In this document: positions 6,739 to 59,450 of the stretch, piece after piece
Numbering within the stretch: the stretch's first letter is position 1
Layout of the letters: every line of letters starts with the position of its first letter
Source: Candidatus Enterousia sp.
GTDB lineage: Bacteria; Pseudomonadota; Alphaproteobacteria; Rs-D84
Assembly: GCA_045613785.1 (NCBI GenBank)
Contig: JAZLBQ010000007.1
Span: 64,001-128,000, forward strand
Length of the DNA: 64,000 bases
Direction of reading: 5' to 3'
Translations under genes and position numbers: made by a program
The notes under the pieces: generated by a model
The model's database searches: none
Told to the model about the DNA's origin: nothing
What the model saw: the letters and a program-made list of their open reading frames with translations, nothing else

Positions 6739-6745
6739 CGATTCG

Positions 6746-14819: not shown

Positions 14820-14838
14820 GACACAATCCTTTTCTTCT

Positions 14839-15132: not shown

Positions 15133-15257
15133 CAATTGAACGTCCAATTGGTTCAAACGCCACTGATAATGAATTACGCTGGTTTGCTGCTCAGTCAGCA
15201 CTGGTCCGTCACATAGAATCTCTTGTTTCCCAGGGCAGGGGGTGTTCAAATGTTTAA
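15099..15257 (+). pseudogene. Bbp19-like phage protein, 3' remnant without start codon
   Basis: Manual frame: GKSVLEHLRQITIERPIGSNATDNELRWFAAQSALVRHIESLVSQGRG. Confidence 0.6.
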
Positions 15258-15486
15258 CCTGGAATTTTTACGCAACAGTTGGTTTTTGATTGCATTTATT
15301 GGTGGGCTGATTTATTGGGCAGCTCGCCAAGATTTATCTGTTGCGGAACACGAACACTTTGACAGTCGTATAACCTCGCTGGAAAATCGCACGACGATAC
15401 TGGAAACTGGTATTGGTCAGATTCAGATAAAAATAGACGACATCAAAGAAGATTTAAATTTAATAAAAAGTGCCGTTATAAAGTAA
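15250..15486 (+). CDS. Small TM plus coiled-coil phage-like protein
   Basis: MFNLEFLRNSWFLIAFIGGLIYW, then heptads RITSLE...IDDIKEDL. Confidence 0.6.
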   Translation: MFNLEFLRNSWFLIAFIGGLIYWAARQDLSVAEHEHFDSRITSLENRTTILETGIGQIQIKIDDIKEDLNLIKSAVIK

Positions 15487-36345: not shown

Positions 36346-36421
36346 GGGGACATAGCTCAGTTGGTAGAGCAAATGACTTTTAATCATTGGGTCCAGGGTT
36401 CGAGTCCCTGTGTCCCCACCA
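36346..36421 (+). tRNA. tRNA-Lys(TTT)
   Basis: GGGGACATAGCTCAG...AATGA-CTTTTAA-TCATT...TGTCCCCACCA, followed by a terminator hairpin. Confidence 0.96.
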
Positions 36422-36555
36422 GGAAATCCGCAGAAATCTGCGGTTTTTTATTTTGTCCTAGTTGTCGAAAATACCAATTTGTGCTGTAAAAAAGCACGAA
36501 AAAGCGTGTTTTTGCACAAAGTTTGCACAAAATCTGCACAAATGCCCCTTTCAGA

Positions 36556-38714
36556 CTGTGCATAATATTTACTTGGTCTTTGATTGCTTTGCTGATTGTT
36601 TTCTCACGTTCCTGCATAGTTTCCGTTGTAGATGGTATGATTTCGCCGTTTTCGTCACGTGGGTTCGTCATACTATCTCTTGCAGGACTGGATGGGATTG
36701 GTGGCAAAGTCATATTCCCATACCATACATTGAAGAAATCAACCGCTGACTGGTCTAATACTGGATGGACAATCATACCGTTTTCGTTTCTAAATCCAAT
36801 CTGTGCGATAGATTTATACTTTTCAGGTATCCAGTTCAAGTATTCTGTCATTGGCAGTGTAGCACCATCAGGAACGGGTGCAAGACCAGTAATAACTGCT
36901 TCGGTCATCGTTGCGAATGTTTCCTGCTGACTGCGTGTCAATGTTTCCTGCTGTGGGTCTATGCCTAGAATACCGAATAAAGTGTTGGTTTCGTCAATCC
37001 ACTGCTGACCGATAGTCAATTCCCCTTTGGATGCTTTCTTGAACATAGAAAACGTATTGTCCAGCCAGAAATGTGCCATTTCGTGTGGCAGGGTCATTGT
37101 ATTCATATTTCTACCCAGAACAATAACCTTTAACTCTGCATCATAGTATCCGTTCGCTTGTGTGCGTTGGAATAACTGGTTGCCCAATTGGTCAAATTTC
37201 TTACGTAATACTTTTACATCTTTATCGTTGAATATTACGAAGCAGCGACCATCCTGTTGACCGTCATAAGTAATCCCTTTAATGCCATGCTTTTCCAACA
37301 ACTGTGATGCTTCTTTATCATTACCAACCAAGTTAGAAATACGGTCGTATATGTTGCCACCACTAAAGCCAAGTTCCCAATCTGTTATTTCTTGCTGAAC
37401 AAAATCAACGCCGTCTTCGTGGTATTTATCAAACACAGGGTCTGCTAAAACTTCTTTCAGTTTTTCTTTTACAAATGCTGGCTGGTCTTTTAATAATTTC
37501 TGTTCATCTAGCAATACGTCCATTTCTGGTATATCTACTTCGTGAACTTGCCCCTTTGGTTCTATGTATTTTAACAAATCAACATTCATATCTTCTAACA
37601 ATGACAGTGTTTTTTTGTATGCTTGTATGTCTGCGTTGCCTTCAAGAAACCACTCTTCGCTATGTTCAGAACGTTTGGCAGTAGATAATAAATCTTCAAT
37701 ATCTTTTATGCGCGCGGTTATCCATCGTTCTGTTGCGTTTTTACCTGTGTCAGTTAAATGTTTTAATGTAAGTCCGTCAATATCTTTATACTTTGTTTCT
37801 GGCATTGGCTTACCATTATAAAAATAATTGTTTGAACCGCGTTTTTCGTCTGCAATAAATGTTTCACGATATTTTTCTGCAATCTGTGGGTCAAGTGCAT
37901 AATACAATCCCCAGCCGTGTGCCTGTGCGCCTTCGCCTGTTCCTATTGCTTCTAGCGAAGGTCTATCATAGTCAACACGAGAACCAGCATAGGCAGATTG
38001 GTATAAGACCCCTTCATTATATCTTGCAGGCTTGACTTTTTGTCTTAAAACACCTAAACTAATAGTAGTGATAGAACCAGTATCCAACCGCTTAAACGGT
38101 CTCGCTGCTGGTTCTATTTCTATTTCAGTGATTTTTTGCCCTGCAAACACATTAGGATTATCCGCTCTGGTGGACACATCCACATATATTGCCACACTGT
38201 ATGGAATGTTATCTATTACTAATGCAGAATGATATATATCTTGTCCTTTGACATTTGGGTGTCTTATATCCGATTTTCTAAAACCTGAATAATGTGCTTT
38301 TTGTAATATTTGTTTTATTTCTTGCAAAACAGCAAAGTATTCTTTTTTATGTCCCTTGGAAACAGCACGTTTTATTCCGGCGTTTGATAACAACACAATT
38401 TCTCCGTTGGATTTGATGCTTACATTCCTTTCATCGCCTAGAACCGATTGTATATATTCTATCAGTTTCTTTTTAGTTCCAAATGCCTTTATTGTTTTTT
38501 CTGAAACCTTGACCGGTTCAATAGTTTCGCTATCATCAGCAATTTGTGGTCCTTCTTCTCTTTGAACAAGGTCTGTCTGTTCTAGAACCTGTATATCAAC
38601 TGTATTATCAAACTGGTTCATTCTAGACATCAGGACTGCTGTTAAACTTTTACTGGTGCAGTGGTCGCCGTCAAATGATTCAAGATTTTGTTCTTTTAAC
38701 GCCTGATAATACAA
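36556..38714 (-). pseudogene. Internal fragment of a giant phage polyvalent (LPD-type) protein
   Basis: IGTGEGAQAHGWGLYY, GIKGITYDG...FVIFND, HEMAHFW metallopeptidase-like motif; no good start, and the 3' end runs into tRNA-flanking DNA. Confidence 0.7.
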
Positions 38715-39275: not shown

Positions 39276-39325
39276 TTCAGAATAAAAGCAATAAAACAAG
39301 GGCAGCGTTTGCTGCCCTGATTTTT

Positions 39326-41392
39326 TTACTTATCATATTCACCTTCGAATATAAACGGTGATGCGGTTGCAGATTTTCCACAACAGGTATTTGCACGGTA
39401 TAAACTAAGTGTTTGTTTGGAACGAGTTGCCGCAACATAAAACAGTCGTCTTTCAGCCTCGTATGCTTCTGGACTGGTTTGAGATTGTGATTTAGGCCAG
39501 ATTCCGTCGTCAACGTTCAAGATAAATACTTGGTCATATTGGCGACCCTTTACACGCAGGGCAGTTGACAGTATAACACGGACATCATCTGAATTTTGCA
39601 GTGTTTCATTTTCTTCGGTCGCAAACTTTGCTTTTTCAATCGCTGCATTAAAGTCGTCCAAGAATCCGTCATAGTCATCACCATATTTTGACGCAAAGTC
39701 CAACAAACTGCGTAATGGTGGCTCACGGAAATACAGGTCTTCCATTGAACGGCTGTAATTTTGTTTCAAGCCATCAAAATTATTCAACAGGCAATCCAAT
39801 GTTTCATATACATTTTCTGCCGCCAAGAAATCCTGCAACAGACTTTCAAAGTTTTCGATAAAGGTGTCATCAAATATCCGAAATTCCTTTGGGTGTTCAG
39901 TTGCCAATGTTGCCAGTGCTGCCCGAATTGTTTCTGGTTTGGTGTTCATCTTCAAGAACGTCCGCCCGATTGTATTTCTGGCCTTTGGATATACCTGATT
40001 ACGACAGGCTAAACAAACCAGTTCGATTAAATCCTCCCGGTTTATGCGATTGCCTTTTTGTTTTATTGCCATCACACGGTTCAGGCTGGCTGCGGCATCA
40101 GTCAGAAAGAATGCCAAGTCAGCACTGACTTTATAGTCAACTTGTTCTTTGGTCAACAGCACCTGATAAGGCAACAAACTGGCCTTTAATCTAGACAACA
40201 CAGCGACAGTCTGATTGGTTTCTCTTGCAATTCGTTTAATTTCTGCCACAACGTCATCAATCATTTGTTCTTGGGTATCAAATACTTTCAGATTGATATT
40301 TGCCAAATCCATCGCAGTGCTTGATTTTACTGTTTTGGGTTCTCGATTTTTATTGTATGAAATCAATTTCATTGACTTTTCAACAATATTTTTAGGCGAA
40401 CGGAAATTTTCATCCAGTAAAAACGTAGTAAACATATTCCCAAATATTTCATCAGGGTGCAGAATAAAATATGGTGCAGCCCCACGGAATTCATAAATAG
40501 ACTGGTCGTCGTCGCCCACGATAATCAGCCCAGCATCATTTAATTTTTGCAGGTTTGAAATCAGCATTAAATCCAACGGGCTGGTATCTTGAAATTCATC
40601 GACAAAGATATAGTCTATTTTTGTTGCTCCGTTCCAACGTTCGCCACGTTGAACTTTTTTGTTCAGTTCAATATTTGCAAAATATTTTTGGTCATCAAAC
40701 GTATAGACGCCCATTGCTCTCATTTGTTCGCAGCAATCCCCCCAGAATGGAATCCAATATTTTACGATGAATTCGTCTTTATCTTTGATTGTTTTTATAA
40801 CACTGCTGCATTCCTGAATAAGCGTATCGACCAACGTGTTATAGTATCTTTCCAAGTCAACTTTTTTTATAAATTTCAGGTGTTCATCATAAATTTTCTT
40901 GTCTTGTTCATAATTGCCGGAAAAAGCGGTGTGCAAAAAGCCAATATTTTTGAATTGGTCAACGATATCCAGCATAGTCAGACATCTATTTTTATTAAAT
41001 TTACCTGAAAACATTTTACCAAAAGTATCCTTGTATTCAGGTTTGTCGCCCCAAATTGGTTGCAAGAAGTTTGAAAAACAAAATTGTCTGTCTTTTAGTG
41101 TGTTTAGTATTTTTGGGTTTTTTAGCGTGTTTGTTTTTATATAGTTGTTTCCCCAACTGTTCAGTGTATTTGCCGAAACGCAGTCTTCGTCATTGCAACG
41201 TTGTCTAATTTCATCAGCTGCCCCACGTGTAAAGGTAAACATATGAATACGGGCGCGATTTTTCTTTGCGATGATATTGCGTGCTTTTTCGATAATAGAA
41301 AAAGTTTTTCCGCACCCCGCTGGTGCCAGCAATCTGATAAACTTTGCATCACTGTTGATGAAATCTGATTGTGATTTAGTGTAATTCGACAT
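39326..41392 (-). CDS. UvrD/REP SF1 helicase
   Basis: APAGCGKT, VDEFQD, VGDDDQSIYEFRGA, ENFRS, KGRQY, ERRLFYVAATR. Confidence 0.92.
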   Translation of the reverse strand: MSNYTKSQSDFINSDAKFIRLLAPAGCGKTFSIIEKARNIIAKKNRARIHMFTFTRGAADEIRQRCNDEDCVSANTLNSWGNNYIKTNTLKNPKILNTLKDRQFCFSNFLQPIWGDKPEYKDTFGKMFSGKFNKNRCLTMLDIVDQFKNIGFLHTAFSGNYEQDKKIYDEHLKFIKKVDLERYYNTLVDTLIQECSSVIKTIKDKDEFIVKYWIPFWGDCCEQMRAMGVYTFDDQKYFANIELNKKVQRGERWNGATKIDYIFVDEFQDTSPLDLMLISNLQKLNDAGLIIVGDDDQSIYEFRGAAPYFILHPDEIFGNMFTTFLLDENFRSPKNIVEKSMKLISYNKNREPKTVKSSTAMDLANINLKVFDTQEQMIDDVVAEIKRIARETNQTVAVLSRLKASLLPYQVLLTKEQVDYKVSADLAFFLTDAAASLNRVMAIKQKGNRINREDLIELVCLACRNQVYPKARNTIGRTFLKMNTKPETIRAALATLATEHPKEFRIFDDTFIENFESLLQDFLAAENVYETLDCLLNNFDGLKQNYSRSMEDLYFREPPLRSLLDFASKYGDDYDGFLDDFNAAIEKAKFATEENETLQNSDDVRVILSTALRVKGRQYDQVFILNVDDGIWPKSQSQTSPEAYEAERRLFYVAATRSKQTLSLYRANTCCGKSATASPFIFEGEYDK

Positions 41393-41545
41393 TTTGCAAC
41401 CCTTGTTTTGTCCAGAAGTAATGTTATCCTAAATATTTTATATTTCTACAAATTTTTACGATTTTTGTCCTAGACAATGACATCAAATATTTTGTAGTCT
41501 ATAAGCGTTATACAAAGAATCTTTTAAAATTCCCAGGGGGCAAAA

Positions 41546-42976
41546 ATGGCAAAGAAACAGACGAAAAATCAAGAAAAACCAAACAAGAAAAAATATTATG
41601 TCCGTGCTGCATTTTTTAGTGCGATTTTTGGCATTTTGTCATTGCTTGGAATGCTGTATCTAGGTGGGGCAGGTTGGTTGGACAGCTTTATTACTGCGGT
41701 ATTTTGTGCTGGAATGATGTGGCTGTTGGTTCATGATCTGATTTTTCACAAGTATTGTGCATCTTGGTATCCGACAATTGGTATGTTGGGAACATTTGTT
41801 GGAATTTTTGTCGGATTACAAGGCCTAGATATTTCTGATTTTGCAACAATTGTTGATAACTTGTCTAATTTGCTAGACGGCTTGAAACTGGCATTTATTA
41901 CCAGTATTGTTGGTGTGGGGTTATCTGGCCTTCGAAAAATCTTGGATTACATTGGTGTGAACAAGATTGATACCGATGTTCAGGAAACTTCTTTGTTTGA
42001 AATCTTGTCAAACGGTTCGAACGCATCGCTTGCCATCAGTGAAAATACCGCACAATTCAAAGGTGGCGATATTGCAGGGCAAATTGCTGCATTGCAGGCC
42101 GAATTTAAGCAGTTTTCCGAACGTGCTGCTGAAAATATGGGAAATCAGTTTGCAAATGCCCTGGGGAATATTGCAACGGATTTGAATACAAAAATATCGG
42201 AACAGTTTGGTGGGAATCTTGCCAAATTTGCAGATTCTGTTGATGTCCTGGTCGAATGGCAAAAACAGAACAAGGCCGATATGGATTCTTACATTGCCCA
42301 GTTAAAAGCCTATGCGGATACCTATAATGAAAAACTGGATAAACTAACTGGTGCGGCTGACAGTCTGGAACAGATTATTACCCGTGCGAATGCCCAGATT
42401 GAAATTCTGGCCGGTGGCTTGACCGCAATGCAACAACTGGGCAAGGATGCCGCTGATGCAATCCCTCAGGTTCAATCCCTGGTGGCTGAGGCAAAAAATA
42501 CCTATGAACAGGTATCCACAATCCCTGCGGTTATCGAAAGTGGCCTTGAAACCGCCAACACCGATATTCAGACCAAGATGCAAGAAACGGCAAAACGTAT
42601 TGTTTATGACGTGACCAAGGCTGCATCCGATGAAATGGGAAAAATCAGCGATGTTGCCACCAAAAATATCACAGGAATCGAAACGGCACTAGAAAAATTG
42701 GATAACGCTGTTCGCAACTTCTATGGCGGTGCCGGTGCGTTAAGCACGCTAAAAGGGGAAATGGAACGCCTAAAAGCCAATCTAAGAGATGGTGGGAATT
42801 TCCTGTGTGGTGCAATGGAAAAAAGTGCAATAACTGTTTACGAAGAATTGAATAAGTATTCGGAAACACAGGCAAATATTGAACGTTTGTTGACCAAGCT
42901 AACCGAACAAGAAACTGCAAAAGCCGCCCAGACTACCAAAAAAACAAAAACATCAAAACAAAAGCAAGAGGCCTAA
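41546..42976 (+). CDS. zorA: ZorA-like MotA-family membrane protein with long helical tail
   Basis: PTIGMLGTFVGIFVGL...LLDGLKLAFITSIVG, then about 340 aa predicted coiled coil. Confidence 0.85.
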   Translation: MAKKQTKNQEKPNKKKYYVRAAFFSAIFGILSLLGMLYLGGAGWLDSFITAVFCAGMMWLLVHDLIFHKYCASWYPTIGMLGTFVGIFVGLQGLDISDFATIVDNLSNLLDGLKLAFITSIVGVGLSGLRKILDYIGVNKIDTDVQETSLFEILSNGSNASLAISENTAQFKGGDIAGQIAALQAEFKQFSERAAENMGNQFANALGNIATDLNTKISEQFGGNLAKFADSVDVLVEWQKQNKADMDSYIAQLKAYADTYNEKLDKLTGAADSLEQIITRANAQIEILAGGLTAMQQLGKDAADAIPQVQSLVAEAKNTYEQVSTIPAVIESGLETANTDIQTKMQETAKRIVYDVTKAASDEMGKISDVATKNITGIETALEKLDNAVRNFYGGAGALSTLKGEMERLKANLRDGGNFLCGAMEKSAITVYEELNKYSETQANIERLLTKLTEQETAKAAQTTKKTKTSKQKQEA

Positions 42977-42979
42977 TAA

Positions 42980-43711
42980 ATGCTGTTAAAAAATCATGAT
43001 GATTCATCGCATTTCATATCGCTGTCAGACATTATGACAGCCTTGATGATGGTCTTTATGTTTATTTCTGTGGCAATTATTACCCAGATTCAAAAGGAAA
43101 ACGTATCAGGCCTGCGTGAATCCCAGCAAAAACGTCAACAACACCTTGCAGCAACGATGATTGATGCTGTTGACAGCAAACTGGATCGTTGGGGGGCCAG
43201 TATTGATGCCGATAATCTGACTATAACTTTTGTGGATTCTGCTGGCACAGGTGCGGTATCTAGCGGTGGCAGTATTGCGGATTTTCGTTCCCGGACATTG
43301 TTTGATGTCGGCAGTTCTGAACTTAGTCCTGAATTTAAGCAGACGCTTTCTGAATTTTTCCCTGTTTATATCAAATGGGTTCAAAAGAACAAAGACCTGA
43401 TTCAGGAAATTCGTATCGAAGGTCATGCGGATTCCACGGGCAAGGCTGGTCAAACCGAACGTGAAAGTTATTTCTTTAATATGGCGCTGTCCCAGGCACG
43501 CACAATCAGTGTGTTGGAATATTGTATGACCCTGCCGAACTTTACAAATACTGATTTTGAAAATATGAAGGAATTTATAACCGCCAACGGTTTCAGTTTT
43601 TCCCACGTGATAAAGGATGCCAGTGGTCGTGAAAATCGTGCTGCATCACGTCGTGTTGAATTTCGTGCGTTGCCAAAAAGTGTATTCCAAACCAAGTCAG
43701 GGGATTTGTAA
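42980..43711 (+). CDS. zorB: ZorB-like MotB/OmpA protein
   Basis: ISLSDIMTALMMVF TM with conserved Asp; IEGHAD, NMALSQAR, SRRVEF. Confidence 0.88.
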   Translation: MLLKNHDDSSHFISLSDIMTALMMVFMFISVAIITQIQKENVSGLRESQQKRQQHLAATMIDAVDSKLDRWGASIDADNLTITFVDSAGTGAVSSGGSIADFRSRTLFDVGSSELSPEFKQTLSEFFPVYIKWVQKNKDLIQEIRIEGHADSTGKAGQTERESYFFNMALSQARTISVLEYCMTLPNFTNTDFENMKEFITANGFSFSHVIKDASGRENRAASRRVEFRALPKSVFQTKSGDL

Positions 43712-44901
43712 TGTCAGGTATAAAAATGACCGATGTCGGTGAATTTGATGCTTTAAAGCCTGTTGTTGACCGTTTGCACGAATTGGCCAGGCGGGTTGGT
43801 GCCCCTGATGTCTATGCCGAAATCCCGGAAACTTTTTATGGCAGCCTGGACGAATTGGTTAACGATGGATATCTGGTCGCCCCACGGCAGGACGACAAGG
43901 GAAATTTTGTCCCGACAACGACAGGTCAGGTCTTGCGTAATCGTGATGGTGACGTTGTGTTTTTGTATATCCCAGATTCATCAAATGTTCCCCGTGATGA
44001 AAAAAAACGTAATCGTATTCATATGTATTGGTGCGGTCATTTGACCCGGGGCCTGAATGAAAAACGTCAGGATCGTTATTGTGGCACGGTTGATGTTTCC
44101 GACAGTGGATATTTCTGCATGGAAAACGATGCAGTTGTTCGCATGTTGCCGTGTAAAAATTGCTATGATTATGCACATCGCTATCGTGATTGCGACTATG
44201 GCACGATTGACAAGTTCAAATACAAAAAATTTGCCACCGAAAACAGTTTAGATGCAAAACGCAAGGCCATTAAATCAACTGTTGGCAATGGTGTTGACGC
44301 AACACCAATTTATGGGTGTGCAAATTGTGATTTTACAACCACTGACCCTGATGAACTGGACCCAAAATATCTGTTATGCCCGACCTGTTTTGCGATGGAG
44401 CAAATATTTTTACCGCTTCGCAGTGCCAGAACACTGGACGACTTGCGTGATTGGTTTACAAACACAGGAACCAAGGATTTACGTTATGGCAATGGTCAGA
44501 CCCCACTAATGTATCTGGTTCGTCATAATTCACGCCCAAAACTTATCAAGGCAATGGTTGAAACATATGGCTGTGATGTAAACGCCACTGACAACGATAA
44601 CAAAAGTGTTCTGATGCACTTTGTAGAAAGCAATAACCTTCGTCCATATTCTGACTTGTCTGATGAACTTGATACTTTGCGTTCATTAGGGGCAAATGTA
44701 AAGCATGAACACCGTGTTCCTGACAAGATGCTGGGGCATGCAAACAAAATGGCTGTTGGATATGCCGGGGAAAATACAGAATTACGTCGTGCACTGCTGG
44801 CATGGGCTGGACGCTATGGTATGTCCAAGGCTGATAACAGAAGAAGGGTTTCTTACAGTGTTGACCGTTCTGGATTTCGCTCACGTGATGACGATGATTG
44901 A
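43711..44901 (+). CDS. Zorya third component: Zn-binding domain, HNH-less CxxC pair, ankyrin repeats
   Basis: RIHMYWC..L...RY...CKNC; CANC...LCPTC; GQTPLMYL, DVNATDNDNKSVLMH; coupled to zorB. Confidence 0.7.
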   Translation: MSGIKMTDVGEFDALKPVVDRLHELARRVGAPDVYAEIPETFYGSLDELVNDGYLVAPRQDDKGNFVPTTTGQVLRNRDGDVVFLYIPDSSNVPRDEKKRNRIHMYWCGHLTRGLNEKRQDRYCGTVDVSDSGYFCMENDAVVRMLPCKNCYDYAHRYRDCDYGTIDKFKYKKFATENSLDAKRKAIKSTVGNGVDATPIYGCANCDFTTTDPDELDPKYLLCPTCFAMEQIFLPLRSARTLDDLRDWFTNTGTKDLRYGNGQTPLMYLVRHNSRPKLIKAMVETYGCDVNATDNDNKSVLMHFVESNNLRPYSDLSDELDTLRSLGANVKHEHRVPDKMLGHANKMAVGYAGENTELRRALLAWAGRYGMSKADNRRRVSYSVDRSGFRSRDDDD

Positions 44902-46069: not shown

Positions 46070-46627
46070 ATGAACAAATCGAAATTATTTACATTGTTTG
46101 TCATTTTTATCGGTGTGATGTTGGGGTATTTTATGACCGCACGTCCTACATGTCCAGATGTTCAGGAATGTGACGATTTCGCCTATGATGGTGATTTTGT
46201 TGCTCAGTATTATCTGGAAAACAAGGATAAATATTGTTATTCGTATTGGGTCCCACACGGTGGTTTATGGCAAGAAATATGTTTTGACACCGCTGCCCAG
46301 TGTCAGGCAGAACTGGCTGCCGATTGGCACAAGACGAACACAGAAACATGCTATATCCCGTCCATTGTGCCAGCCTGGTGTGTTGGTGATATCCAAACAG
46401 GCGAATATCGCACAGACGACGTTGTCGGCGAAGAATATCAGCTTTTGGCGACAATTTGTGTTCAGGATAAAAACACCTGTGAACAAATGCGTCGCTATCA
46501 ATTGCCATACAGCAAATTTGAGTGTGTTGGCAGAATGGTATTCCAGCATGAAAGCGAAACATCATATCTGACCCCTGATTACGAACTGGAATCAATAATA
46601 AAAAATAACGAAAACAGCCCAAGGTAA
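46070..46627 (+). CDS. Cysteine-rich exported/membrane hypothetical protein
   Basis: N-terminal TM, repeated C...C motifs. Confidence 0.6.
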   Translation: MNKSKLFTLFVIFIGVMLGYFMTARPTCPDVQECDDFAYDGDFVAQYYLENKDKYCYSYWVPHGGLWQEICFDTAAQCQAELAADWHKTNTETCYIPSIVPAWCVGDIQTGEYRTDDVVGEEYQLLATICVQDKNTCEQMRRYQLPYSKFECVGRMVFQHESETSYLTPDYELESIIKNNENSPR

Positions 46628-47941: not shown

Positions 47942-48739
47942 ATGAACGAAACGCCACGTGTATCTGTTTTAATGCCTGCATACAATGCACAGAATTTTAT
48001 TGGCCAGGCAATTGAATCTATATTGACCCAAACGTTTCGTAATTTTGAATTTATTATCATCAATGATGGGTCAACCGATAAAACCCCTGAAATAATTCAG
48101 TTTTATGCCGACAGGGATAAACGAATTAGGTTTATAAATAATCCGGAAAATCAGGGGCTAATTGCGGTCTTGAATCAGGGACTTGATATTTGCCGTGGGG
48201 AATATATTGCCCGTATGGACAGTGATGATATTTCTTTGCCTGGTCGTCTAGAAGCCCAGGTGAAATACATGGACTTTCATCCTGCGTGCGGTGTTCTTGG
48301 AACTTCCCAGGTTTTGTTTGGTGATATAAATCAACCTGTGTTTTATCAACCTGTTGTTCACATCCTGGACATAATGACTTATAACCCTGTTTCTCATCCA
48401 ACAGTGATGTTTCGTAAATCTGTTATCGACGAACACAACATCCGTTATAACCCAGATTACAAACATTGCGAAGACCTAGAGCTCTGGACCCGAATGATTC
48501 ATATAACCCAGATTCATAATTTGCAAACTATCTTTTTATATAATCGCATAACCGCAGGCAATGTTACTACTACACACTGGGAGCATCAGCAGAAATTGAC
48601 CCAGAAAATACGTCAACAGGTCAAAGATTACATTTTGGGAAATCCAGAAGTTATAAGCCAGATTTTATCATCTTTACAAACTGAAAAACCACGTATTATG
48701 GTCGTAAGTTTAGATGTTGTCGCTTTGAATAAAAAATAG
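47942..48739 (+). CDS. GT2 glycosyltransferase
   Basis: VSVLMPAYN, NDGSTD, ARMDSDD, EDLELW. Confidence 0.9.
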   Translation: MNETPRVSVLMPAYNAQNFIGQAIESILTQTFRNFEFIIINDGSTDKTPEIIQFYADRDKRIRFINNPENQGLIAVLNQGLDICRGEYIARMDSDDISLPGRLEAQVKYMDFHPACGVLGTSQVLFGDINQPVFYQPVVHILDIMTYNPVSHPTVMFRKSVIDEHNIRYNPDYKHCEDLELWTRMIHITQIHNLQTIFLYNRITAGNVTTTHWEHQQKLTQKIRQQVKDYILGNPEVISQILSSLQTEKPRIMVVSLDVVALNKK

Positions 48740-50005
48740 TTCACGCAAATCCGATATAATATTATTTTGATTTTCCTGTTTGGTTAAATCTTTGTTCAAA
48801 TCAAATGTTGCTGTTCTGATAAGTGGGGACTCTGCATCGTTATCCATATTCAGATAATATTTATTTGCAATAGTGTTTTCTTCATCTGCTCGTGGATATA
48901 GTAATATTGCATTTTCAGACTGATGAATTTTGCAGTATGTTACAACCTGAAAAACGTCGGCTGTATCAAATCTAGATTTTGTTTTATACTTTGTATCCAA
49001 CACTATTCCTGATGGAATCTCTTTGGTTTTTACAAACATATCAACGTATGTATTTCCATATTTGCGATCGTTTTCGATACAGCGTAATAAACGTCGTCCT
49101 CGTTGATACTCAATGGAATCGATTCCAATTTTATCCTTGTTTCTTTTTATAAATTCGAACACAAATTCTTCGAACAATATGTTCATATCCCACAACAGTG
49201 CGATATTTTCAATATTATTCTTGGACATATCCACAGACATTTGTCCGATAAACATTTTTGCCAACATCAATGGCACTTCAAAGCACTTTTGACTTCTGTT
49301 CAGCTGTATTTTTTCAACGTCAGAATATTTCAAATGTTTAAAAGAAATATCGGCATAGTTATTTACAATAAATCCTAAAATTTTCTTTGTTTTTGGATTT
49401 TTTGTAATGCTGCCCAGACATCTTGAAACGAATAAAAAAGTCTGATTTAATAAATTATCTTCGCTAAATTCGTCGAAGTTGCAGTAGAATTTGGCCTGGT
49501 TTGCACAGTTTTGTTTAATATGCTCCGTTAAATTTAATTTGCCACGCACGCACGCAATGTTTTCGGCTTGTCTAACATAGTTCTTTGGAACTGAATATTT
49601 CAACGAATTAAACAATGATTGTGCATAAAACAGCATCAGTGTTTCAATAAAATCAGCCTGCATTTGCCCCATCAGTGCAGAATCCATGCTGTTGACATTT
49701 AACTGCCGTGTCCAGCCCAACATAAAGATAAGATTTTTCAGTATTTGATCTCGATTGCTAGTGTCCTTGGCCAGCAGTTTAGGCAAGATTTCAATTTGTA
49801 TATTTTTATACTTCAAAACCCCAACAAAATTTGTTGCCCTTATGCCATTTTGTTCAAGTTTGATAGCATCCTGTAATTTTTGCTTTGCCAAGAAACGTTC
49901 CAGACCGTCAGCGAATGCCGGTTTTTGCAAAGATTCTGCAATAATGTCCGGCATATCATCAAACTTGACATAGTCATATTCAAAGACGTTCAGACTTTGT
50001 CCCAT
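48710..50005 (-). CDS. mcrC: McrC-family restriction subunit
   Basis: IEILPK, LWDMNILFEEF, VDM...DTKYK, DVFQVVTY...LLYP. Confidence 0.9.
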   Translation of the reverse strand: MGQSLNVFEYDYVKFDDMPDIIAESLQKPAFADGLERFLAKQKLQDAIKLEQNGIRATNFVGVLKYKNIQIEILPKLLAKDTSNRDQILKNLIFMLGWTRQLNVNSMDSALMGQMQADFIETLMLFYAQSLFNSLKYSVPKNYVRQAENIACVRGKLNLTEHIKQNCANQAKFYCNFDEFSEDNLLNQTFLFVSRCLGSITKNPKTKKILGFIVNNYADISFKHLKYSDVEKIQLNRSQKCFEVPLMLAKMFIGQMSVDMSKNNIENIALLWDMNILFEEFVFEFIKRNKDKIGIDSIEYQRGRRLLRCIENDRKYGNTYVDMFVKTKEIPSGIVLDTKYKTKSRFDTADVFQVVTYCKIHQSENAILLYPRADEENTIANKYYLNMDNDAESPLIRTATFDLNKDLTKQENQNNIISDLRELFFIQSDNI

Positions 50006-50008
50006 AAG

Positions 50009-52312
50009 TTATTCCGCCTGTTCAGTTTGTTCTGCCAACTTGTTGATTGCTTCAACAAAACGATTGTTGTCAAAATTTTCAATTTTTTCGAACTGCCAAA
50101 ATTCATCTTCTGAAATCAGATTTTTAACAGACTTGTCAGCGATATTGCGTTTGATCACAAAATCATTTCCCAACACAATTTTCAACTTGTCCCAATCGCC
50201 CCAGAAATATTCCTTCATCAGTGGCATAATTTCATTGAACCAAACATCTTTTAGCATTTGGACAGATTTACATTTTTTAAAGAAACTATGTCCAATCAAG
50301 TGGTCTTCGTCCAACAGAGCGTTTATTTTGTTGTTTAGTTCTTCAAAGACCGCCCGAACTTTGATTCCATCAATTTCTTGGTCAATCAGATTTGCATCTG
50401 GCAACACAGGTATAAACTTAAAGCGTCTTCGCAGTGCAATATCAATTGCCGCAATAGAACGGTCAGCGGTATTCATTGTTCCGATAATATACAGGTTTTG
50501 TGGCACACCAAAAGACTCCTGACTGTATGGCAACGTAATAGTTAGCTCTTCTTCTGCCCCGATGCGTTTGGTGCTTTCTATCAGTGTAATCAATTCTCCG
50601 AAAATCTTGGAAATATTTCCACGATTGATTTCATCAATCACCAAAACGTAATTTTTGTTCTGTGGTGCATCACCCGTGATTAAACTGTTCAAGACCTTTA
50701 TATCGATGTCCTTTTTGTCTAATTCGTAAACAGACTGCATACTGAACTTTTTACCCTTAACAATAGCACTAACGGGTATGGTTTCATGTGAAATCCAGTT
50801 TACATTTCTAAAATGTTTATATTCGATATCCGCTTCTGGATTGAAAACATAGTCGCCCGTTATTTCTGCGATTGCAGCAATTTCACTTTTCCCGTTTGCG
50901 ATTAAAACAATGTCGCCTGGTTTCATTTCACAACGCAGGAAATTCATCGCTGTTCTTGCAAAATTATCCAGTTTATTATCCTTGACCAGTTTTTCCACAT
51001 CACGACGATTTTTCGCATTTGAAAAATCAATATCTCCGCCATAGTTGTTCGCAATCACACTATTTTCCATACAGAATTCAAATACGTCATTCTCTATTCC
51101 TGACCCCAAAGACATTTTGAATATGCGTGCATTTGCAGGGATTTCTTTTTTGCTGTATTTCTGATGGTCTGCCTTTGCATTTGCACGTTCTGCAATTTTT
51201 TTGAATATTCCGTCAACACGTCTGTATCCAAGGCTGGTTTCGTTGTCCAGAACAGGGCGAATTCCTTCCACAAAGTCTTCGTATGACATAGATTGGTGGA
51301 ACGTTACAAATTCAACACGACCTTGCTTTTTCAAATCATTGAATTTTCCGTGCAGTTCATTATATCTTTCTTTTGAGATATTAAAGCCATAATCCCCACC
51401 ATCATTTTCCAGGATTTCCATCGCCTTGATAATGGTAGAATATGTTTTTCCTGTTCCTGGTGCTCCATATAAAATTTGATTTAATGGTATTTGTGATGAA
51501 TTTGTTTCTGGCATTTTGTTCCCCCGTGTTTTTTTATTGCCAATCGTGGTCATGGAATTCTCTTTGTCTGGTAATCCAATATCATCTCCAACAATCGTTT
51601 CAAATATGCCCAACGGCACCTTACATTCCCGTGCAAATACGGCGACCTCGCCAACTGTTGCATAGATGTCATCGTGCCAGGTCAGCCCCAGCATATCGCA
51701 TGCACGTTTGAAATAATCCTTCGCATACCATGACGACATTTTTTTGATGTGAACAATACGTAAATATTTTCTAATCCATATTTGTTCATAAAATTTTTCG
51801 GGCAATCCCAGTTTGTTACACTTATTCTGAAAAGTCGTCCCCAGTTTTTTGTATTCTTCAACCGTTTTTAGTTCGTTGCGTTCGATTTCATCTGATGCAA
51901 AAACCAGAAAATCACGAATTTTTTCAGCGATTTTTCTTGCCTTGTTTATATCTATTGTGTCGCTTGCAAGTTTTTTTGCATCGGTTGGATTTTTTTTCCA
52001 ATAATACCATTGGTTATTGTCTTTTGATATCAGGTATCCCAATTTTGCTTTTGGATAGCCCTGTATGTTGCCAAAAAAACGTGTCAAATTATCATCATAT
52101 TCCAAGCGATGCATCATATCGTCCATGTTTCCATTTTGAAAACAAAGTCTGTTCAGCAAATCGGCTGGTTTCATATTTTTTAATTTGTCTGGGCCAAAAT
52201 CTTTCAAGAATTCTGCACGATATTTTTTTATGCTCTTACTAGCGTCGTCATATTTTGCACGATTTGTTTTATACAGCTGAATTATTTGATTTTTGACTTC
52301 CAGATTGGCCAT
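50009..52312 (-). CDS. mcrB: McrB-family AAA+ GTPase
   Basis: YGAPGTGKT, FHQSMSYEDFVEG, IDEINRGN, MNTADRS, ALRRRF. Confidence 0.92.
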   Translation of the reverse strand: MANLEVKNQIIQLYKTNRAKYDDASKSIKKYRAEFLKDFGPDKLKNMKPADLLNRLCFQNGNMDDMMHRLEYDDNLTRFFGNIQGYPKAKLGYLISKDNNQWYYWKKNPTDAKKLASDTIDINKARKIAEKIRDFLVFASDEIERNELKTVEEYKKLGTTFQNKCNKLGLPEKFYEQIWIRKYLRIVHIKKMSSWYAKDYFKRACDMLGLTWHDDIYATVGEVAVFARECKVPLGIFETIVGDDIGLPDKENSMTTIGNKKTRGNKMPETNSSQIPLNQILYGAPGTGKTYSTIIKAMEILENDGGDYGFNISKERYNELHGKFNDLKKQGRVEFVTFHQSMSYEDFVEGIRPVLDNETSLGYRRVDGIFKKIAERANAKADHQKYSKKEIPANARIFKMSLGSGIENDVFEFCMENSVIANNYGGDIDFSNAKNRRDVEKLVKDNKLDNFARTAMNFLRCEMKPGDIVLIANGKSEIAAIAEITGDYVFNPEADIEYKHFRNVNWISHETIPVSAIVKGKKFSMQSVYELDKKDIDIKVLNSLITGDAPQNKNYVLVIDEINRGNISKIFGELITLIESTKRIGAEEELTITLPYSQESFGVPQNLYIIGTMNTADRSIAAIDIALRRRFKFIPVLPDANLIDQEIDGIKVRAVFEELNNKINALLDEDHLIGHSFFKKCKSVQMLKDVWFNEIMPLMKEYFWGDWDKLKIVLGNDFVIKRNIADKSVKNLISEDEFWQFEKIENFDNNRFVEAINKLAEQTEQAE

Positions 52313-52405: not shown

Positions 52406-53410
52406 CTATCGCACTTGTTGATATTGCATTGCAATCAGGTCTTTTACCTTTTTGATAACATCCTTCATACCGTCTGTGTTTTCGATGTATGGTATAACCA
52501 GGGCGTCCTTGATTAACGGACTTGGTGGCAACCAGGACGGAACACAATTTCCATATCCATGGTGATCGTCCGAATAACTATAAAAAAGAAATTTTTCACG
52601 AATATTCCATTTATTTCGTTCCCACTCTGAAAAAACCAATCGTCGCAACATTGACGGATGTGCCAAACAGAACAACAATTTTTCTGGATAAATTATATCG
52701 GTTGTATCCTTGATTTTTATATATGTTTCATAGAAATCATAATCATCTTCTGCCTGCATGCTGAACTTGTTCGTAGCAAATGCGATTGTAATTTCTGTTT
52801 GGATATTTGCCATTTCCAACGCATCAATAATTTGATATACGGTGTATCCTCGTTTCAATACATCTGCCACAGGCACCTCGCGATGAAATGTTCCGACAAT
52901 TATGACTTTTTGAATCCGTGCGGGCAGGGCGTGTGCCACCGAGGTGTTGATACGTCGCATACAGTCAGGCACCCCCGATAAATATCGACCAATGTTCACA
53001 GAACTGCCTGCAATATCATACTTTGATTGCATTTCATAGTGCTGTTGTAATTCTTCTTTCGATGGTAAATCAAGGATATGCATTTCTTTTAATTGTTTTA
53101 GACCCTCAAACCACCCAGATTTCGCCAGATTTAGTGCCTCGTCAAACGACCAGGTTAGCGTCATGTTGTGCCGTCTTGTTGATTGTGCCTGTGAAGACCT
53201 TCGGTTTTCATGTCCTTTCCAATCTATGTATTCCAAGAACTGTTCCCAGTCAAAAAATTTCTGTAATCGTGGATAATCATATTTTTCAGTTTTTACAACA
53301 CGTGGTTCTTTTTTCGCAACTTTGTCGCCAGTGTTGCCTGAACCAGACCGTGGGATATAAAAGTCCCCCGCCGCCTCCATTGAACCAATATGTTCGGTAA
53401 TCCACGCCAT
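52406..53410 (-). CDS. vWA-like partner of the AAA ATPase
   Basis: AGSSVNIGRYLSGVPDCM, IDALE, LAHPSMLRRLVF, GYG; directly downstream of the AAA gene. Confidence 0.6.
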   Translation of the reverse strand: MAWITEHIGSMEAAGDFYIPRSGSGNTGDKVAKKEPRVVKTEKYDYPRLQKFFDWEQFLEYIDWKGHENRRSSQAQSTRRHNMTLTWSFDEALNLAKSGWFEGLKQLKEMHILDLPSKEELQQHYEMQSKYDIAGSSVNIGRYLSGVPDCMRRINTSVAHALPARIQKVIIVGTFHREVPVADVLKRGYTVYQIIDALEMANIQTEITIAFATNKFSMQAEDDYDFYETYIKIKDTTDIIYPEKLLFCLAHPSMLRRLVFSEWERNKWNIREKFLFYSYSDDHHGYGNCVPSWLPPSPLIKDALVIPYIENTDGMKDVIKKVKDLIAMQYQQVR

Positions 53411-53415
53411 AATTA

Positions 53416-54351
53416 TTATCTGGTATTTCTGCGAATTTTTTCTATATCGGCTGCGTTCATTCCCTTGAATACAACCATTTTTTCAACTACATCACGTGGC
53501 ACGCCAGCATTTAATAGCCTTTCGCCATGCAGCACAGCACGAGTTCCCACAACCGCCTTCATATCCAATAGGTTTACAGCATTACGAACGCTGTGAACCC
53601 AATCCAGCCATTCTTTATTTGCACACAATCTATTTTCCAGATTGATATCATAGTCAGTCCAAATCATCACAAATCTGTCCAGCGTTGCAGCGTCCAGCGG
53701 ATTGCGACCAATGTATTTGATATTTGCACCTGTTCCGTATGTATTGCCACTGGCTGCCATTATAAAGCGTGGATGCTTATCAACAATTTTGTCTGGGAAA
53801 GCATATTTATCTTGGCTCATTGCGTTGTTGATTACTGTCAAGACATTTGGATTACCCGCATCAATTTCTTCGAAACTGAAAATGCCACCGTTTTCATATG
53901 CCTTACGAAAGATTGTAGGAACATATTTTCCATTTGCATCATTGTATCCGATGATATTATAGTCGCTGGTCAGCGAATTTACAGACAACGGATAAAAAGG
54001 CAACTCCATTGCGGTTGCAATTTGCTGTAATATTGTGCTTTTTCCACTGCCAGCTGGACCAACCAAAAACGGCGAACAGCCTGCTAAAATCGCACGGTAT
54101 GTCGTTTCAAAAGATGCGTGTTGTGCATTAAAATCGACATCAGGATTTAATCCTAAACTTTTTCGCACTTGTGCATCGTTCACCTGACCCAGCATTTGTC
54201 TAGCCACGCCCACGCCGTCCATCAGCTGTTGAATTTCAGTGTTTATCTGTTTTTTCTTTTGTTTTGAACGGATTACAAAGTCTAATAAATTGTCCAGTTC
54301 CCCACTTTTATACAGCTTGTAAACTTGGGAAAATTCACTAAAGAAACCCAT
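53416..54351 (-). CDS. MoxR/CbbQ-like AAA+ ATPase
   Basis: VGPAGSGKS, FEEIDAG, GNTYGTG, LDAATLDRF. Confidence 0.85.
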   Translation of the reverse strand: MGFFSEFSQVYKLYKSGELDNLLDFVIRSKQKKKQINTEIQQLMDGVGVARQMLGQVNDAQVRKSLGLNPDVDFNAQHASFETTYRAILAGCSPFLVGPAGSGKSTILQQIATAMELPFYPLSVNSLTSDYNIIGYNDANGKYVPTIFRKAYENGGIFSFEEIDAGNPNVLTVINNAMSQDKYAFPDKIVDKHPRFIMAASGNTYGTGANIKYIGRNPLDAATLDRFVMIWTDYDINLENRLCANKEWLDWVHSVRNAVNLLDMKAVVGTRAVLHGERLLNAGVPRDVVEKMVVFKGMNAADIEKIRRNTR

Positions 54352-55588: not shown

Positions 55589-55993
55589 TTGTGTAAAGGA
55601 ACCGGTGTGAAAGTAACTGCTGCAATTTTTAGAAATGGCGATAATGTTCTGCTGATGCGACGGGCGGCTGACCAACCTTTGGCGGGCGAATGGGAATATC
55701 CTGGTGGCAAGTTTGAAGATGGCGAAGACGGACCAACATGCCTGCACAGGGAACTCTACGAAGAATTGGGAATAGACGCAGAAATTGGCGACCTGATTAC
55801 CATTGCAAAACATACAACGGATTCGGGTAAGATTATTGAACTTCATACATACGAAATCACATCCTACACAGGCGAAATCCAACTGCGCGTCCACGACGAT
55901 ATGCATTGGGTGCCAGTCCAGGACTTACCCTCCCACCCACAACTCCTCGCCGACCAAATCGTATCTAAAACACTACAAGCCATGGGGAAGTAA
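55589..55993 (+). CDS. NUDIX hydrolase, MutT-like (start uncertain)
   Basis: WEYPGGKFEDGEDGPTCLHRELYEELG. Confidence 0.85.
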   Translation: MCKGTGVKVTAAIFRNGDNVLLMRRAADQPLAGEWEYPGGKFEDGEDGPTCLHRELYEELGIDAEIGDLITIAKHTTDSGKIIELHTYEITSYTGEIQLRVHDDMHWVPVQDLPSHPQLLADQIVSKTLQAMGK

Positions 55994-56060
55994 AACGCGT
56001 TTTTTCTGTGGAAAAAATCATACAAACTTTGCTATGATCATCAAAACAAGGAAGGTAAAT

Positions 56061-57773
56061 ATGAGTTTAGCATCAAACATAAATGAAAAAGCGAATTTAA
56101 TTTGGGCAATCGCAGACAAATTAACAGGGCCATTCAAACCTCATGAATATGGCGAGGTTATATTACCTTTGATGGTAATCCGTCGCTTTGACTGTATCTT
56201 ACAAGATACAAAACAGGCGGTTTTGAATGCAAATAAATCAATCCCAGATGGCCCGATGAAACATGCGCTGCTGTGCGATGCGTCCAAGCATTCGTTTTAT
56301 AATGTCAGTGATTTTACCTTCCCGCGTTTGATGGATGCCCCGGAACATATCGCAGAAAATTTTGCCGCATATATCGCAGGTTTTTCTGAAAACATTCGTG
56401 ACATTATTGATAATTTTAAGTTTCAAAATATAATTGAGCGTTTGGTTGAAAACGACCTGTTGTATATCATCATAGAAGAGTTTTGCTCGCCCAAGGCCGA
56501 TTTGCACCCATCAAAAATCAGTAATTTGGAAATGGGATACATTTTTGAAGAGGTTATACGTCGTTTTTCGGAATCACATAACGAAGACGCTGGGCAACAT
56601 TATACCCCACGTGAAGTTATTGAATTGATGGTAAATATTTTGTTTGAAAACGATGATGAGTTTTTAACGGGTAATGTTGCAAAAACCTTGTATGACCCGA
56701 CGGTGGGAACAGGCGGTATGTTATCCGAGGCGCAAGAATATCTGCAATCAATGAATCCTGATGCAAAATTGGTATGTTATGGCCAGGAAATAAACCCACA
56801 AACATATGCGATTTGCAAGGGGGATATGCTGATCAAGGGCAATGATGCAGACAATATCAGACGCGGAAATACATTGTCCGATGATAAGTTTGAAGGCGAC
56901 AAATTTGATTATATTTTATCAAATCCGCCGTTCGGTCGTGAATGGAAAAAAGAAAAAGATGATGTTGAAAAAGAAGCAAAATTGGGGCATGCCGGTCGTT
57001 TTGGGGCCGGATTACCACCGATCAGCGACAGTCAAATGTTGTTCCTGCAAGTATGTGCCGCAAAATTACGTGACCAAGGTGGACGTGCGTGCGTTGTTCA
57101 AAACGGCTCGCCGTTGTTCAGTGGTGATGCCGGCAGCGGTTCATCAGAAATCCGTCGCTATTTGCTGGAACATGATTGGGTAGAAGCGATTATCGCATTA
57201 CCAAATGATTTGTTTTATAACACGCCAATTGCGACATATATCTGGGTTTTATCAAACCGCAAGGCATCATACCGACAGCACAAGGTGCAGCTAATTGATG
57301 CCAGCCAAATGTATGAAAAACGTCGCAAAGCATTGGGAAATAAACGCAACGATATCCCACAATCTGCCATTGATGAAATAACGCGTATTTACGGTGAATT
57401 CAAAGAAACAGAAATCAGCAAGATATTCAATACAGATGAATTCGGATATCGCAAGATTGTTGTTGAACGTCCATTGCGTGATGAAAACGGTGATGTTGTT
57501 TTGAAGAAAGGTAAACCGGTTGCCGACCCAAAGTTACGCGACACAGAAAACATCCCATTGACCGAAGATATTCAGACGTATTTTGAGCGCGAGGTTTTGC
57601 CATTTGCACCCGATGCATGGATTGATGAATCCAAGACAAAAATCGGATACGAAATACCATTTACGCGCTATTTCTATAAATACACCCCGCCACGCAAATC
57701 AGAAGACATCATGGCGGAAATAATGACATTGGAATCTGAATTGGATGCACTGTTGAAAGGGGTGTCCAAATGA
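56061..57773 (+). CDS. hsdM: Type I R-M methyltransferase
   Basis: GQHYTPREV, YDPTVGTGGML, NPPF. Confidence 0.95.
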   Translation: MSLASNINEKANLIWAIADKLTGPFKPHEYGEVILPLMVIRRFDCILQDTKQAVLNANKSIPDGPMKHALLCDASKHSFYNVSDFTFPRLMDAPEHIAENFAAYIAGFSENIRDIIDNFKFQNIIERLVENDLLYIIIEEFCSPKADLHPSKISNLEMGYIFEEVIRRFSESHNEDAGQHYTPREVIELMVNILFENDDEFLTGNVAKTLYDPTVGTGGMLSEAQEYLQSMNPDAKLVCYGQEINPQTYAICKGDMLIKGNDADNIRRGNTLSDDKFEGDKFDYILSNPPFGREWKKEKDDVEKEAKLGHAGRFGAGLPPISDSQMLFLQVCAAKLRDQGGRACVVQNGSPLFSGDAGSGSSEIRRYLLEHDWVEAIIALPNDLFYNTPIATYIWVLSNRKASYRQHKVQLIDASQMYEKRRKALGNKRNDIPQSAIDEITRIYGEFKETEISKIFNTDEFGYRKIVVERPLRDENGDVVLKKGKPVADPKLRDTENIPLTEDIQTYFEREVLPFAPDAWIDESKTKIGYEIPFTRYFYKYTPPRKSEDIMAEIMTLESELDALLKGVSK

Positions 57774-59032: not shown

Positions 59033-59450
59033 TTTCTTTTCTTCACAGTTGTTTGGGGTTATTATTGGGGCGCTGATGACCGGTGGTTTTACGTGGCTAT
59101 TGGATTGCCTGCGATACAAACGCGAACGCAAGGCACATATTCAACAAAAACGCGAAGAATTATATATTCAAGTATGTCATGTGTTGATGGAACATGATAA
59201 ATACTGTCGCGACCACGAATGGCCTAAACAGTGCAAAGAAATGTTCAATGAATTACAGGGCAAAATGCTGATATATGCATCCAAAAAGATTTACAAACAA
59301 TATTATACATTAGATACTGAAATTTGTTCTGTTTATGCTAAAATGAAATCCAAGAAACAACGTGAAGAAATGTCAAACCAAATCGCAGACAAGGTAGAGG
59401 CATTTGCATCAGAAATGCGTAAAGAACTTGGTATAAAAGGAGTGTTATAA
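59019..59450 (+). CDS. One-TM hypothetical protein inside the hsd operon
   Basis: Overlaps the hsdS stop and hsdR start; N-terminal TM. Confidence 0.7.
   Translation: MSWNDFFSSQLFGVIIGALMTGGFTWLLDCLRYKRERKAHIQQKREELYIQVCHVLMEHDKYCRDHEWPKQCKEMFNELQGKMLIYASKKIYKQYYTLDTEICSVYAKMKSKKQREEMSNQIADKVEAFASEMRKELGIKGVL

Follow-up and report, generated by a model that had tools for sequence, protein, structure and literature searches.

Here, we describe a variant of the Zorya anti-viral system in a gut bacterium, Candidatus Enterousia sp., encoded in a 64,000-nucleotide stretch of DNA (positions 64,001 to 128,000 of contig JAZLBQ010000007.1, GenBank assembly GCA_045613785.1) that is termed the window. 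The cutting protein of this system, ZorE, is without its cutting site and has gained ankyrin repeats, and a helicase gene is its neighbour; these features suggest an undescribed way in which a membrane motor can be used against viruses. We read the locus as a derivative of type II Zorya in which a nuclease-dead ZorE would serve as an adaptor, its most likely partner being a UvrD-like helicase, and give this reading a probability of roughly 0.45. The source genome (1.04 Mb in 26 contigs, 96.5 % complete) belongs to a genus that is placed by NCBI in Alphaproteobacteria incertae sedis.

A ZorE protein that has lost its catalytic residues

The operon and the parts of its third gene are as follows (window coordinates, strand in brackets).

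41546-42976 (+): zorA, 476 aa; MotA/ExbB-like membrane subunit with a long cytoplasmic tail (PADLOC ZorA2 PDLC00637, 1.6e-34; Pfam MotA_ExbB, 6.1e-6)
42980-43711 (+): zorB, 243 aa; MotB-like, with an OmpA peptidoglycan-binding domain (PADLOC ZorB2 PDLC00641, 7.3e-62; Pfam OmpA, 4.1e-11)
43711-44901 (+): zorE-ank (orf3), 396 aa, third operon gene (PADLOC ZorE2 PDLC00642, 1.3e-6)
43828-44265 (+): ZorE N-terminal domain (DUF8245/PF26739), residues ~40-185, with a zinc site at H104, C108, C148 and C151 (hhalign 99.8 %)
44293-44406 (+): Cys4 zinc ribbon (C203, C206, C223, C226), what remains of an HNH zinc scaffold; His-His, Asn and the terminal His are missing
44407-44745 (+): ankyrin repeat domain, residues ~233-345, about four repeats (Pfam Ank_3, Ank, Ank_2, Ank_5)

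A preliminary description of the window, made from its sequence, had proposed a tightly coupled zorA-zorB-orf3 operon of the Zorya type, and both points agree with the results obtained here. zorA and zorB are separated by 3 nt, zorB and zorE-ank overlap by 1 nt (ATGA), and PADLOC recovers ZorA2, ZorB2 and ZorE2, the last weakly and over residues 77-175 only. The locus has the ZorA of type II Zorya, with its MotA/ExbB domain and long tail, the corresponding ZorB, with an OmpA domain and a transmembrane (TM) Asp (PADLOC, Pfam), and the ZorE N-terminal domain with its zinc site. The ZorB plug/TM segment S-L-S-D-I-M-T-A-L-M, which includes this Asp, is common to the canonical ZorB of a same-genus locus (L001). 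The locus descends from type II Zorya, yet lacks the effector trait by which type II is defined, namely the HNH active site of ZorE (His-His, Asn and terminal His), and for this reason is filed as a variant rather than as a type II member. Scores against the NCBIfam equivalogs are 66 of 700 bits for ZorA2, 127 of 400 for ZorB2 and 15 of 600 for ZorE, all so far under the curated cut-offs that standard annotation would not name these genes; the variant would escape current annotation or be mis-called by it.

The cysteine and histidine motifs of ZorE-ank lie where the preliminary description had placed them: H104, C108, L111, R122-Y123 and C148-K-N-C151 in the N-terminal domain, followed by C203-A-N-C206 and C223-P-T-C226. 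The spacer between CANC and CPTC, DFTTTDPDELDPKYLL, comprises 16 residues and is His-free, and residues 185-235 hold no His at all. When the profile of the ankyrin-type family is compared with that of 17 canonical ZorE proteins (hhalign), the two align over 199 columns with a probability of 99.8 % and an E-value of 1.2e-27, the N-terminal domains throughout. The first CxxC, with its preceding W/Y, falls on the W-x-C-E-x-C-G of HNH and the second on L-C-x-x-C-H, so that C203, C206, C223 and C226 align with the C200, C203, C235 and C238 columns of canonical ZorE. Between them, a 12-column gap in the ankyrin-type profile corresponds to the HH-x-N-G-x-K-S-D...N core, and a further gap of 14 columns to the Y-P-x-N-W segment ahead of the first HNH Cys pair. 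The Cys pairs are 16 residues apart in ZorE-ank versus 31 in canonical ZorE. The proposal that the CxxC pair is an HNH zinc scaffold minus its catalytic segment is upheld by this alignment.

The pattern of conservation is consistent across the family. The canonical proteins (n=17) share an invariant N-terminal zinc site (H89, C93, C135, C138) and invariant HNH residues C200, C203, H217, H218, N230, C235, C238 and H239. In 11 ankyrin-type sequences 19 columns are invariant, among them all eight zinc ligands, four in the N-terminal domain and four in the ribbon, which are therefore not due to chance; in these 11 sequences, His is not conserved at any position between the ribbon Cys pairs or following them. 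The residue after the last ribbon Cys, His in canonical ZorE, is F in ZorE-ank and F/H/I/S/Y/D across the 11. The N-terminal ligands H104, C108, C148 and C151 are invariant in 31 sequences, and are the sole columns invariant across canonical and ankyrin-type proteins together. In the canonical zorA-zorB-zorE of the same genus (L001, genome G024), the C-terminal end of the 252-aa ZorE reads W-K-C-E-K-C-G ... D-L-H-H-I-N-G-V-K-S-D ... N-L-K-A-L-C-R-R-C-H. At this locus a 111-aa open reading frame (ORF) with two CxxC pairs (L001 1181-1516, minus strand) overlaps the zorE stop by 4 nt and may be an unannotated fourth gene.

Domain searches give the same picture. The Pfam HNH family (PF01844) is matched by 17/17 canonical ZorE proteins at E<=1 (best 5.4e-6) and by no part of ZorE-ank. 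For the 11 ankyrin-type members, 25 families are listed and HNH is absent from them; this listing excludes seven more families that match no more than one member apiece. Measured against HNH endonucleases, ZorE-ank has the structural Cys4 zinc site and is without the catalytic His and the metal-binding Asn/His. PF26739 is listed (precomputed Pfam column) both for a 97 % identical twin protein, P0001, and for canonical ZorE; the name DUF8245 for this domain comes from a 2026 preprint (10.64898/2026.05.12.724681). The same preprint reports that defence by Escherichia coli ZorE is abolished by each of H226A in HNH, Y189F, K231A and H90A in the N-terminal zinc site. ZorE-ank retains a counterpart of H90 (H104) but none of Y189 or H226. 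Searches of the protein revealed no intact nuclease site: its catalytic residues have been lost, and the zinc scaffold of HNH remains as a small ribbon.

The ankyrin repeats reported to follow the CxxC motifs were recovered by Pfam, by a predicted structure and by structural comparison. Pfam matches over residues 257-309 are just above their cut-offs (Ank_3, 24.7 bits against 22.3; Ank, 21.2 against 21.1), and Ank_2 is matched by 9/11 ankyrin-type members. The AlphaFold2 model (31-row alignment; mean predicted local distance difference test (pLDDT) 80.5, predicted template modelling score (pTM) 0.67) has paired helices across residues 224-325, and Foldseek matches it solely to ankyrin proteins, designed (DARPin-type) and natural (E ~1e-5, ~140 columns), in keeping with tandem 33-residue helix-turn-helix repeats. 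Designed ankyrins are also matched by sequence in the PDB (7e-7); sequence searches of the PDB with ZorE-ank and with the family profile returned ankyrin proteins and one zinc-finger protein only, and no deposited ZorE structure.

Folded alone, residues 40-235 give a model of pLDDT 85.8 that has no Foldseek match in the PDB at E<=0.001. VIA-align against 48,161 chains gives a weak best Z of 2.6 and lists no HNH nuclease; the ribbon weakly resembles ribosomal zinc-ribbon proteins (Z 2.1-2.6) and the N-terminal domain ATP-grasp fragments. Weak or absent matches of this kind are no proof of a new fold. They do leave room for the view that ZorE-ank is still a nuclease, with another active site in the DUF8245 domain or around the zinc ribbon, and that the ankyrins only modulate its targeting. 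The N-terminal domain is conserved with canonical ZorE, including the Y-I-P-D and R-Y motifs, and an AlphaFold3 model in the preprint puts it near a predicted DNA-facing surface (E99, Y109; 10.64898/2026.05.12.724681). We nevertheless regard this view as very improbable: E. coli ZorE needs the HNH His for all of its defence, as reported for H226A, so that the N-terminal domain alone is insufficient there, the columns invariant in both kinds of ZorE are the four zinc ligands only, and there is no Pfam nuclease match.

Recurrence of the fusion and its maintenance by selection

The ZorE-ankyrin fusion is not confined to the window's genome; it recurs in other genomes and in metagenomes, in at least eight sequence clusters. 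When 1.84 billion cluster representatives were searched exhaustively with phmmer, 1005 proteins scored E<=0.001. Among the 150 listed, most match the ankyrin region only, and the others include near full-length relatives that are 25-37 % identical (P0002, P0005, P0006, P0008 and P0025), fragments (P0003, P0004) and proteins of 169-173 aa that consist of the N-terminal domain only (P0036, P0109); one more member, P0172, came from a profile search. Full-length matches occur in 4/257 species genomes of the genus, the window's own included, and a copy of the locus that is 97 % identical lies in a metagenome-assembled genome (the twin, L019). One member locus (L006) came from 81 pattern matches in metagenome contigs. 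The proteins of L006, L020 and L021 are mutually 82-88 % identical, and their identity to other clusters does not exceed 48 %. The pattern scan of genome contigs required G/S after Cys and for this reason missed L020 and L021, returning the twin alone.

Other collections are poorer in relatives. There was no member among 18 pattern matches in viral contigs, no tblastn match in plasmids, and no full-length member outside the genus in samples of the order (328 genomes) and class (401 genomes). Word-indexed protein searches returned 1 and 3 proteins, and a protein atlas search generic ankyrin clusters only. In the literature searched, supplements aside, no paper was found to link Zorya with an ankyrin fusion, as judged by titles and the starts of abstracts, or to name a type IV Zorya; DUF8245 occurred in the 2026 preprint only, and Zorya, UvrD and ZorAB together in the ARMADA paper only.

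Among L006, L020 and L021, the ratio of non-synonymous to synonymous substitution rates (dN/dS) of zorE-ank is 0.05-0.06, a rough value given that dS exceeds 1. Broken down by part, the ratio is 0.03-0.04 in the N-terminal domain, 0.01-0.04 in the ribbon and 0.05-0.07 in the ankyrin repeats, and no domain exceeds 0.18; for the window compared with its twin it is 0.19. zorE-ank is thus under strong purifying selection, in which the ribbon and the ankyrin part are maintained.

These values bear on the suggestion that the locus is left over from a Zorya system that no longer works, or that its ZorAB motor serves a purpose other than defence. The loss of the catalytic effector and the low NCBIfam scores given above speak in its favour. 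On the other hand, all ORFs are intact in five loci, dN/dS is ~0.05 in every domain, the plug/Asp segment of ZorB is conserved, and the locus lies within a defence island with McrBC, type I restriction-modification (R-M) genes and a WYL regulator. We consider this the least probable of the explanations discussed here.

A linked helicase and its possible role

The gene next to the operon, a candidate fourth component, encodes a helicase of superfamily 1 (SF1).

39326-41392 (-): UvrD/Rep/PcrA-like SF1 helicase, 688 aa (Pfam UvrD-helicase, 1.3e-28, and UvrD_C, 7.2e-26; PADLOC GajB-like, 3.5e-40)
39299-39318: terminator-like hairpin, 3' of the helicase gene
41393-41545: intergenic region of 153 nt from which the helicase gene and zorA diverge

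The protein has the N- and C-terminal domains, Walker A, DExx and motif VI of the UvrD/Rep/PcrA group, and its Walker A, DEFQD and motif VI residues (G26-K29-T30, D265-E266 and T656-R657) are invariant in 10 relatives. By PDB sequence match, PcrA (8e-25), UvrD and Rep are closer than GajB (1e-8). A sigma-70 consensus scan found no site within the 153-nt intergenic region; over the region as a whole it found 20, against a shuffled expectation of 19.9.

Linkage of a UvrD-like helicase gene to the ankyrin-type operon is new here. Wherever the context of an ankyrin-type locus was readable (5/5), the helicase adjoins the operon, and two gene orders occur. In the window and in L019 it is encoded divergently on the other strand, 153 nt upstream of zorA; in L006, L020 and L021 a helicase of 689-692 aa directly follows zorE-ank on the same strand, with gaps of 4, 3 and 16 nt. 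Between these two lineages the helicase is 62 % identical over its full length, as compared with 34 % for ZorE-ank, 37-38 % for ZorA and ~55 % for ZorB. At loci with other ZorE types (L022-L025), the helicase was found in 0/4 at E<=1e-5 within 15.7-20 kb. The helicase family is present in only 11/257 genomes of the genus (E<=1e-30), which rules out a core housekeeping gene.

A second architecture in the same genus combines similar parts. In three genomes (L022, L023 and L024), five genes follow one another on one strand in the order Snf2 helicase, free ankyrin protein, ZorA, ZorB and N-domain-only ZorE, with intergenic gaps of -29 to 47 nt.

Snf2 helicase of superfamily 2 (SF2): 917-953 aa (Pfam SNF2-rel_dom; PADLOC DrmD PDLC02619, ~1e-177)
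Free ankyrin protein: 190-205 aa (Ank_2, 1e-23 to 1e-30; PADLOC PDC-M72A, 1e-23)
Sister ZorA: 364-404 aa
Sister ZorE: 169-216 aa, N-terminal domain only, without the zinc ribbon

As in the window, ZorA and ZorB are grouped in one operon-like block with an ankyrin module, a helicase and a ZorE that has no HNH. The differences are that the ankyrin module is a separate gene, the helicase is of the SF2 Snf2 type and ZorE is without the ribbon, whereas the window has a fusion and an SF1 helicase. What the two architectures have in common is a ZorE lacking HNH that is accompanied by an ankyrin module and a helicase. The fused ankyrin domain is no recognisable orthologue of the free ankyrin proteins, with which it shares only 26 % identity over 69 residues.

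Individual sister loci carry further genes. In L022 an orphan canonical ZorE with an intact HNH (14571-15335, minus strand; 254 aa; PADLOC ZorE2, 2e-49) lies directly upstream of the Snf2 gene and overlaps it, so that a nuclease ZorE and one reduced to the N-terminal domain occur together at a single locus; no match to this orphan was found in L023 or L024. In L023 a type III R-M pair is located directly downstream of the short zorE (4057-8681, minus strand), comprising Mod (N6_N4_Mtase and an EcoP15I C-terminal domain) and Res (ResIII and an endonuclease domain).

The mechanism that we propose for the window locus starts from the usual ion-driven membrane motor, which ZorA and ZorB would form and which would sense phage attack. 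ZorE-ank would be coupled to the activated motor, to DNA or to both through its conserved DUF8245 domain; as it has no active site, it would no longer nick DNA and would serve instead as an adaptor, with the zinc ribbon linking the N-terminal domain to the roughly four ankyrin repeats. Once the system is activated, the ankyrin surface would recruit another protein or turn it on. The UvrD-like SF1 helicase inherited along with the operon is the most likely candidate, and its target would be phage DNA, either incoming or under replication. The domain make-up of ZorE-ank, its missing catalytic residues, the recurrence of the fusion, the selection on it and the linkage of the helicase gene are observed; docking of the N-terminal domain to ZorAB, contact between ankyrin repeats and helicase, and an effector role for the latter are inferred. 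There is precedent for recruitment of this kind: ZorAB is reported to be an ion-driven motor of 5:2 stoichiometry that requires its tail for defence and that directs ZorE, a nickase, to the membrane upon infection (PMC11890865), and in type I ZorC and ZorD are recruited by ZorAB (PMC11946911).

A wider proposal, which we put forward tentatively, is that of a fourth Zorya type that would defend without its own nuclease, in which the signal would run from ZorAB through the ZorE N-terminal domain and the ankyrin adaptor to a helicase on phage DNA, and which would have arisen twice in the genus, once as a fusion with an SF1 helicase and once as a free ankyrin protein with an SF2 helicase. If this is true, the ZorE N-terminal domain would be a universal plug into the motor, and effectors would be swappable modules.

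Several observations weigh against a helicase effector. The helicase family occurs without an ankyrin-type ZorE in 7 of the 11 genomes that have it, and no ZorA, ZorB, ZorE, Ank or Snf2 was found within 12.9-19 kb of 6 of those 7 helicases; since the family occurs without Zorya, it is presumably able to work alone. In a FastTree of 10 helicases the four that are Zorya-linked form one clade with support 1.00, so that the linkage arose once and is a single event seen in two lineages. The adjacency count of 5/5 covers the window, L019, L006, L020 and L021 and leaves out P0002, P0005, P0006, P0008, P0025 and P0172. No nuclease domain was found in any component by PADLOC, Pfam or PDB sequence search. 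Furthermore, E. coli Zorya II is reported to adjoin and synergize with Druantia III and ARMADA II without forming a complex (10.64898/2026.05.12.724681; ARMADA paper), and ARMADA II includes a DrmD-like ArmA and a GajB-like ArmD (ARMADA paper); helicase adjacency in the window could likewise reflect synergy rather than one machine. A complex prediction for the helicase and ZorE-ank residues 45-350 scored 0.00 against a mark of 0.32, without controls, and speaks neither for nor against binding.

Six of the stand-alone helicases (L049-L054, in genomes G170, G213, G196, G278, G101 and G217) are 47-55 % identical to the window copy and lie in varied contexts. One is beside type I R-M and recombinase-like genes and two are near uvrA- and ssb-like genes, these neighbours being named by N-terminal sequences only.

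The same observations could be explained if ZorE-ank were an adaptor or trap that binds directly, through its ankyrin repeats, to a protein of the phage or the host; a phage replication or anti-defence protein could, for example, be sequestered at the activated motor. The helicase would then be a separate co-travelling defence or repair module that perhaps synergizes with Zorya. Ankyrin repeats are generic protein-binding modules, and the surface residues of those in ZorE-ank vary by lineage (34 % identity overall), while the stand-alone helicases and the synergy reported in E. coli without a constitutive complex also fit this explanation. It accounts less well for a helicase that stays adjacent in all five loci despite a change of orientation, only 3-16 nt from zorE-ank in three of them, and for a second architecture that again pairs an HNH-less ZorE, an ankyrin protein and a helicase. 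On balance we judge direct binding rather unlikely, and retain the helicase as the most likely partner of ZorE-ank.

Genomic surroundings and relation to known systems

The variant is located in a defence island that spans ~36-63 kb of the window (36384-63674), the other genes of which are as follows.

36384-38714 (-): LPD3-domain protein, 776 aa
38772-39275 (+): small Cys-rich ORF, 167 aa, with a signal- or lipoprotein-like N-terminus; no Pfam match; 98 % identical in L019
44971-45999 (+): WYL/WCX-domain protein, 342 aa (Pfam WYL, 9e-7, and WCX, 4.3e-7; PADLOC WYL, 8.5e-20)
46070-46627 (+): small Cys-rich ORF, 185 aa, with a signal- or lipoprotein-like N-terminus; no Pfam match; 86 % identical in L019
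46633-47844: DUF2130 protein
48710-52312 (-): McrC and a McrB-like AAA_5 protein
52406-54351 (-): DUF7192 and AAA_5 pair
55803-62455 (+): type I R-M genes hsdM, hsdS and hsdR

The WYL/WCX protein is a possible transcriptional regulator of the locus, to which its linkage is weak: a copy occurs in the twin L019, but L006 and L021 gave no match. In L020 (genome G094), a 482-aa WYL relative that is 48 % identical lies ~2 kb upstream of zorA (3127-4575, plus strand). With such a gene in 3/5 loci, WYL regulators may be recurrent neighbours of this Zorya variant.

Type II Zorya, as described in E. coli and Sulfuricurvum (PMC11890865), has the same zorA-zorB-zorE order and the same tight coupling as the window, and its ZorE likewise has a His-Cys3 zinc site in the N-terminal domain and a Cys4 zinc site in HNH. 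ZorE-ank differs in that it is without the HNH His-His, Asn and terminal His and without YPxNW, and adds an ankyrin domain of ~110 residues and a tail; window-type operons are also constantly linked to a UvrD-like helicase. Type I Zorya (PMC11946911) offers a proposed likeness of another sort, a motor that recruits a non-catalytic DNA- or protein-binding partner and a helicase-type ATPase. ZorC and ZorD are, however, unrelated to ZorE-ank, and ZorD is of the SF2 Snf2 type with a nuclease of its own, whereas the window helicase is SF1, UvrD-like and without a detected nuclease domain. Among defence helicases, GajB of Gabija and ArmD of ARMADA II are UvrD-like, and the best PADLOC models for the window helicase are those of GajB. 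The flanking ORFs scanned (near the helicase, ORFs of at least 167 aa) include no match to GajA or OLD/TOPRIM, as Gabija would have, and no other ARMADA component; in E. coli, ARMADA II is reported to co-localize with Zorya II.

The comparison matters for how the signal of the Zorya motor passes to cytoplasmic effectors. ZorE-ank is a natural protein in which the coupling part is separated from the killing part, and provides a clean construct with which to ask what DUF8245 binds. If the helicase is the effector, Zorya would extend beyond nuclease-based killing, which would fit the reported synergy of Zorya II with Druantia III and ARMADA II.

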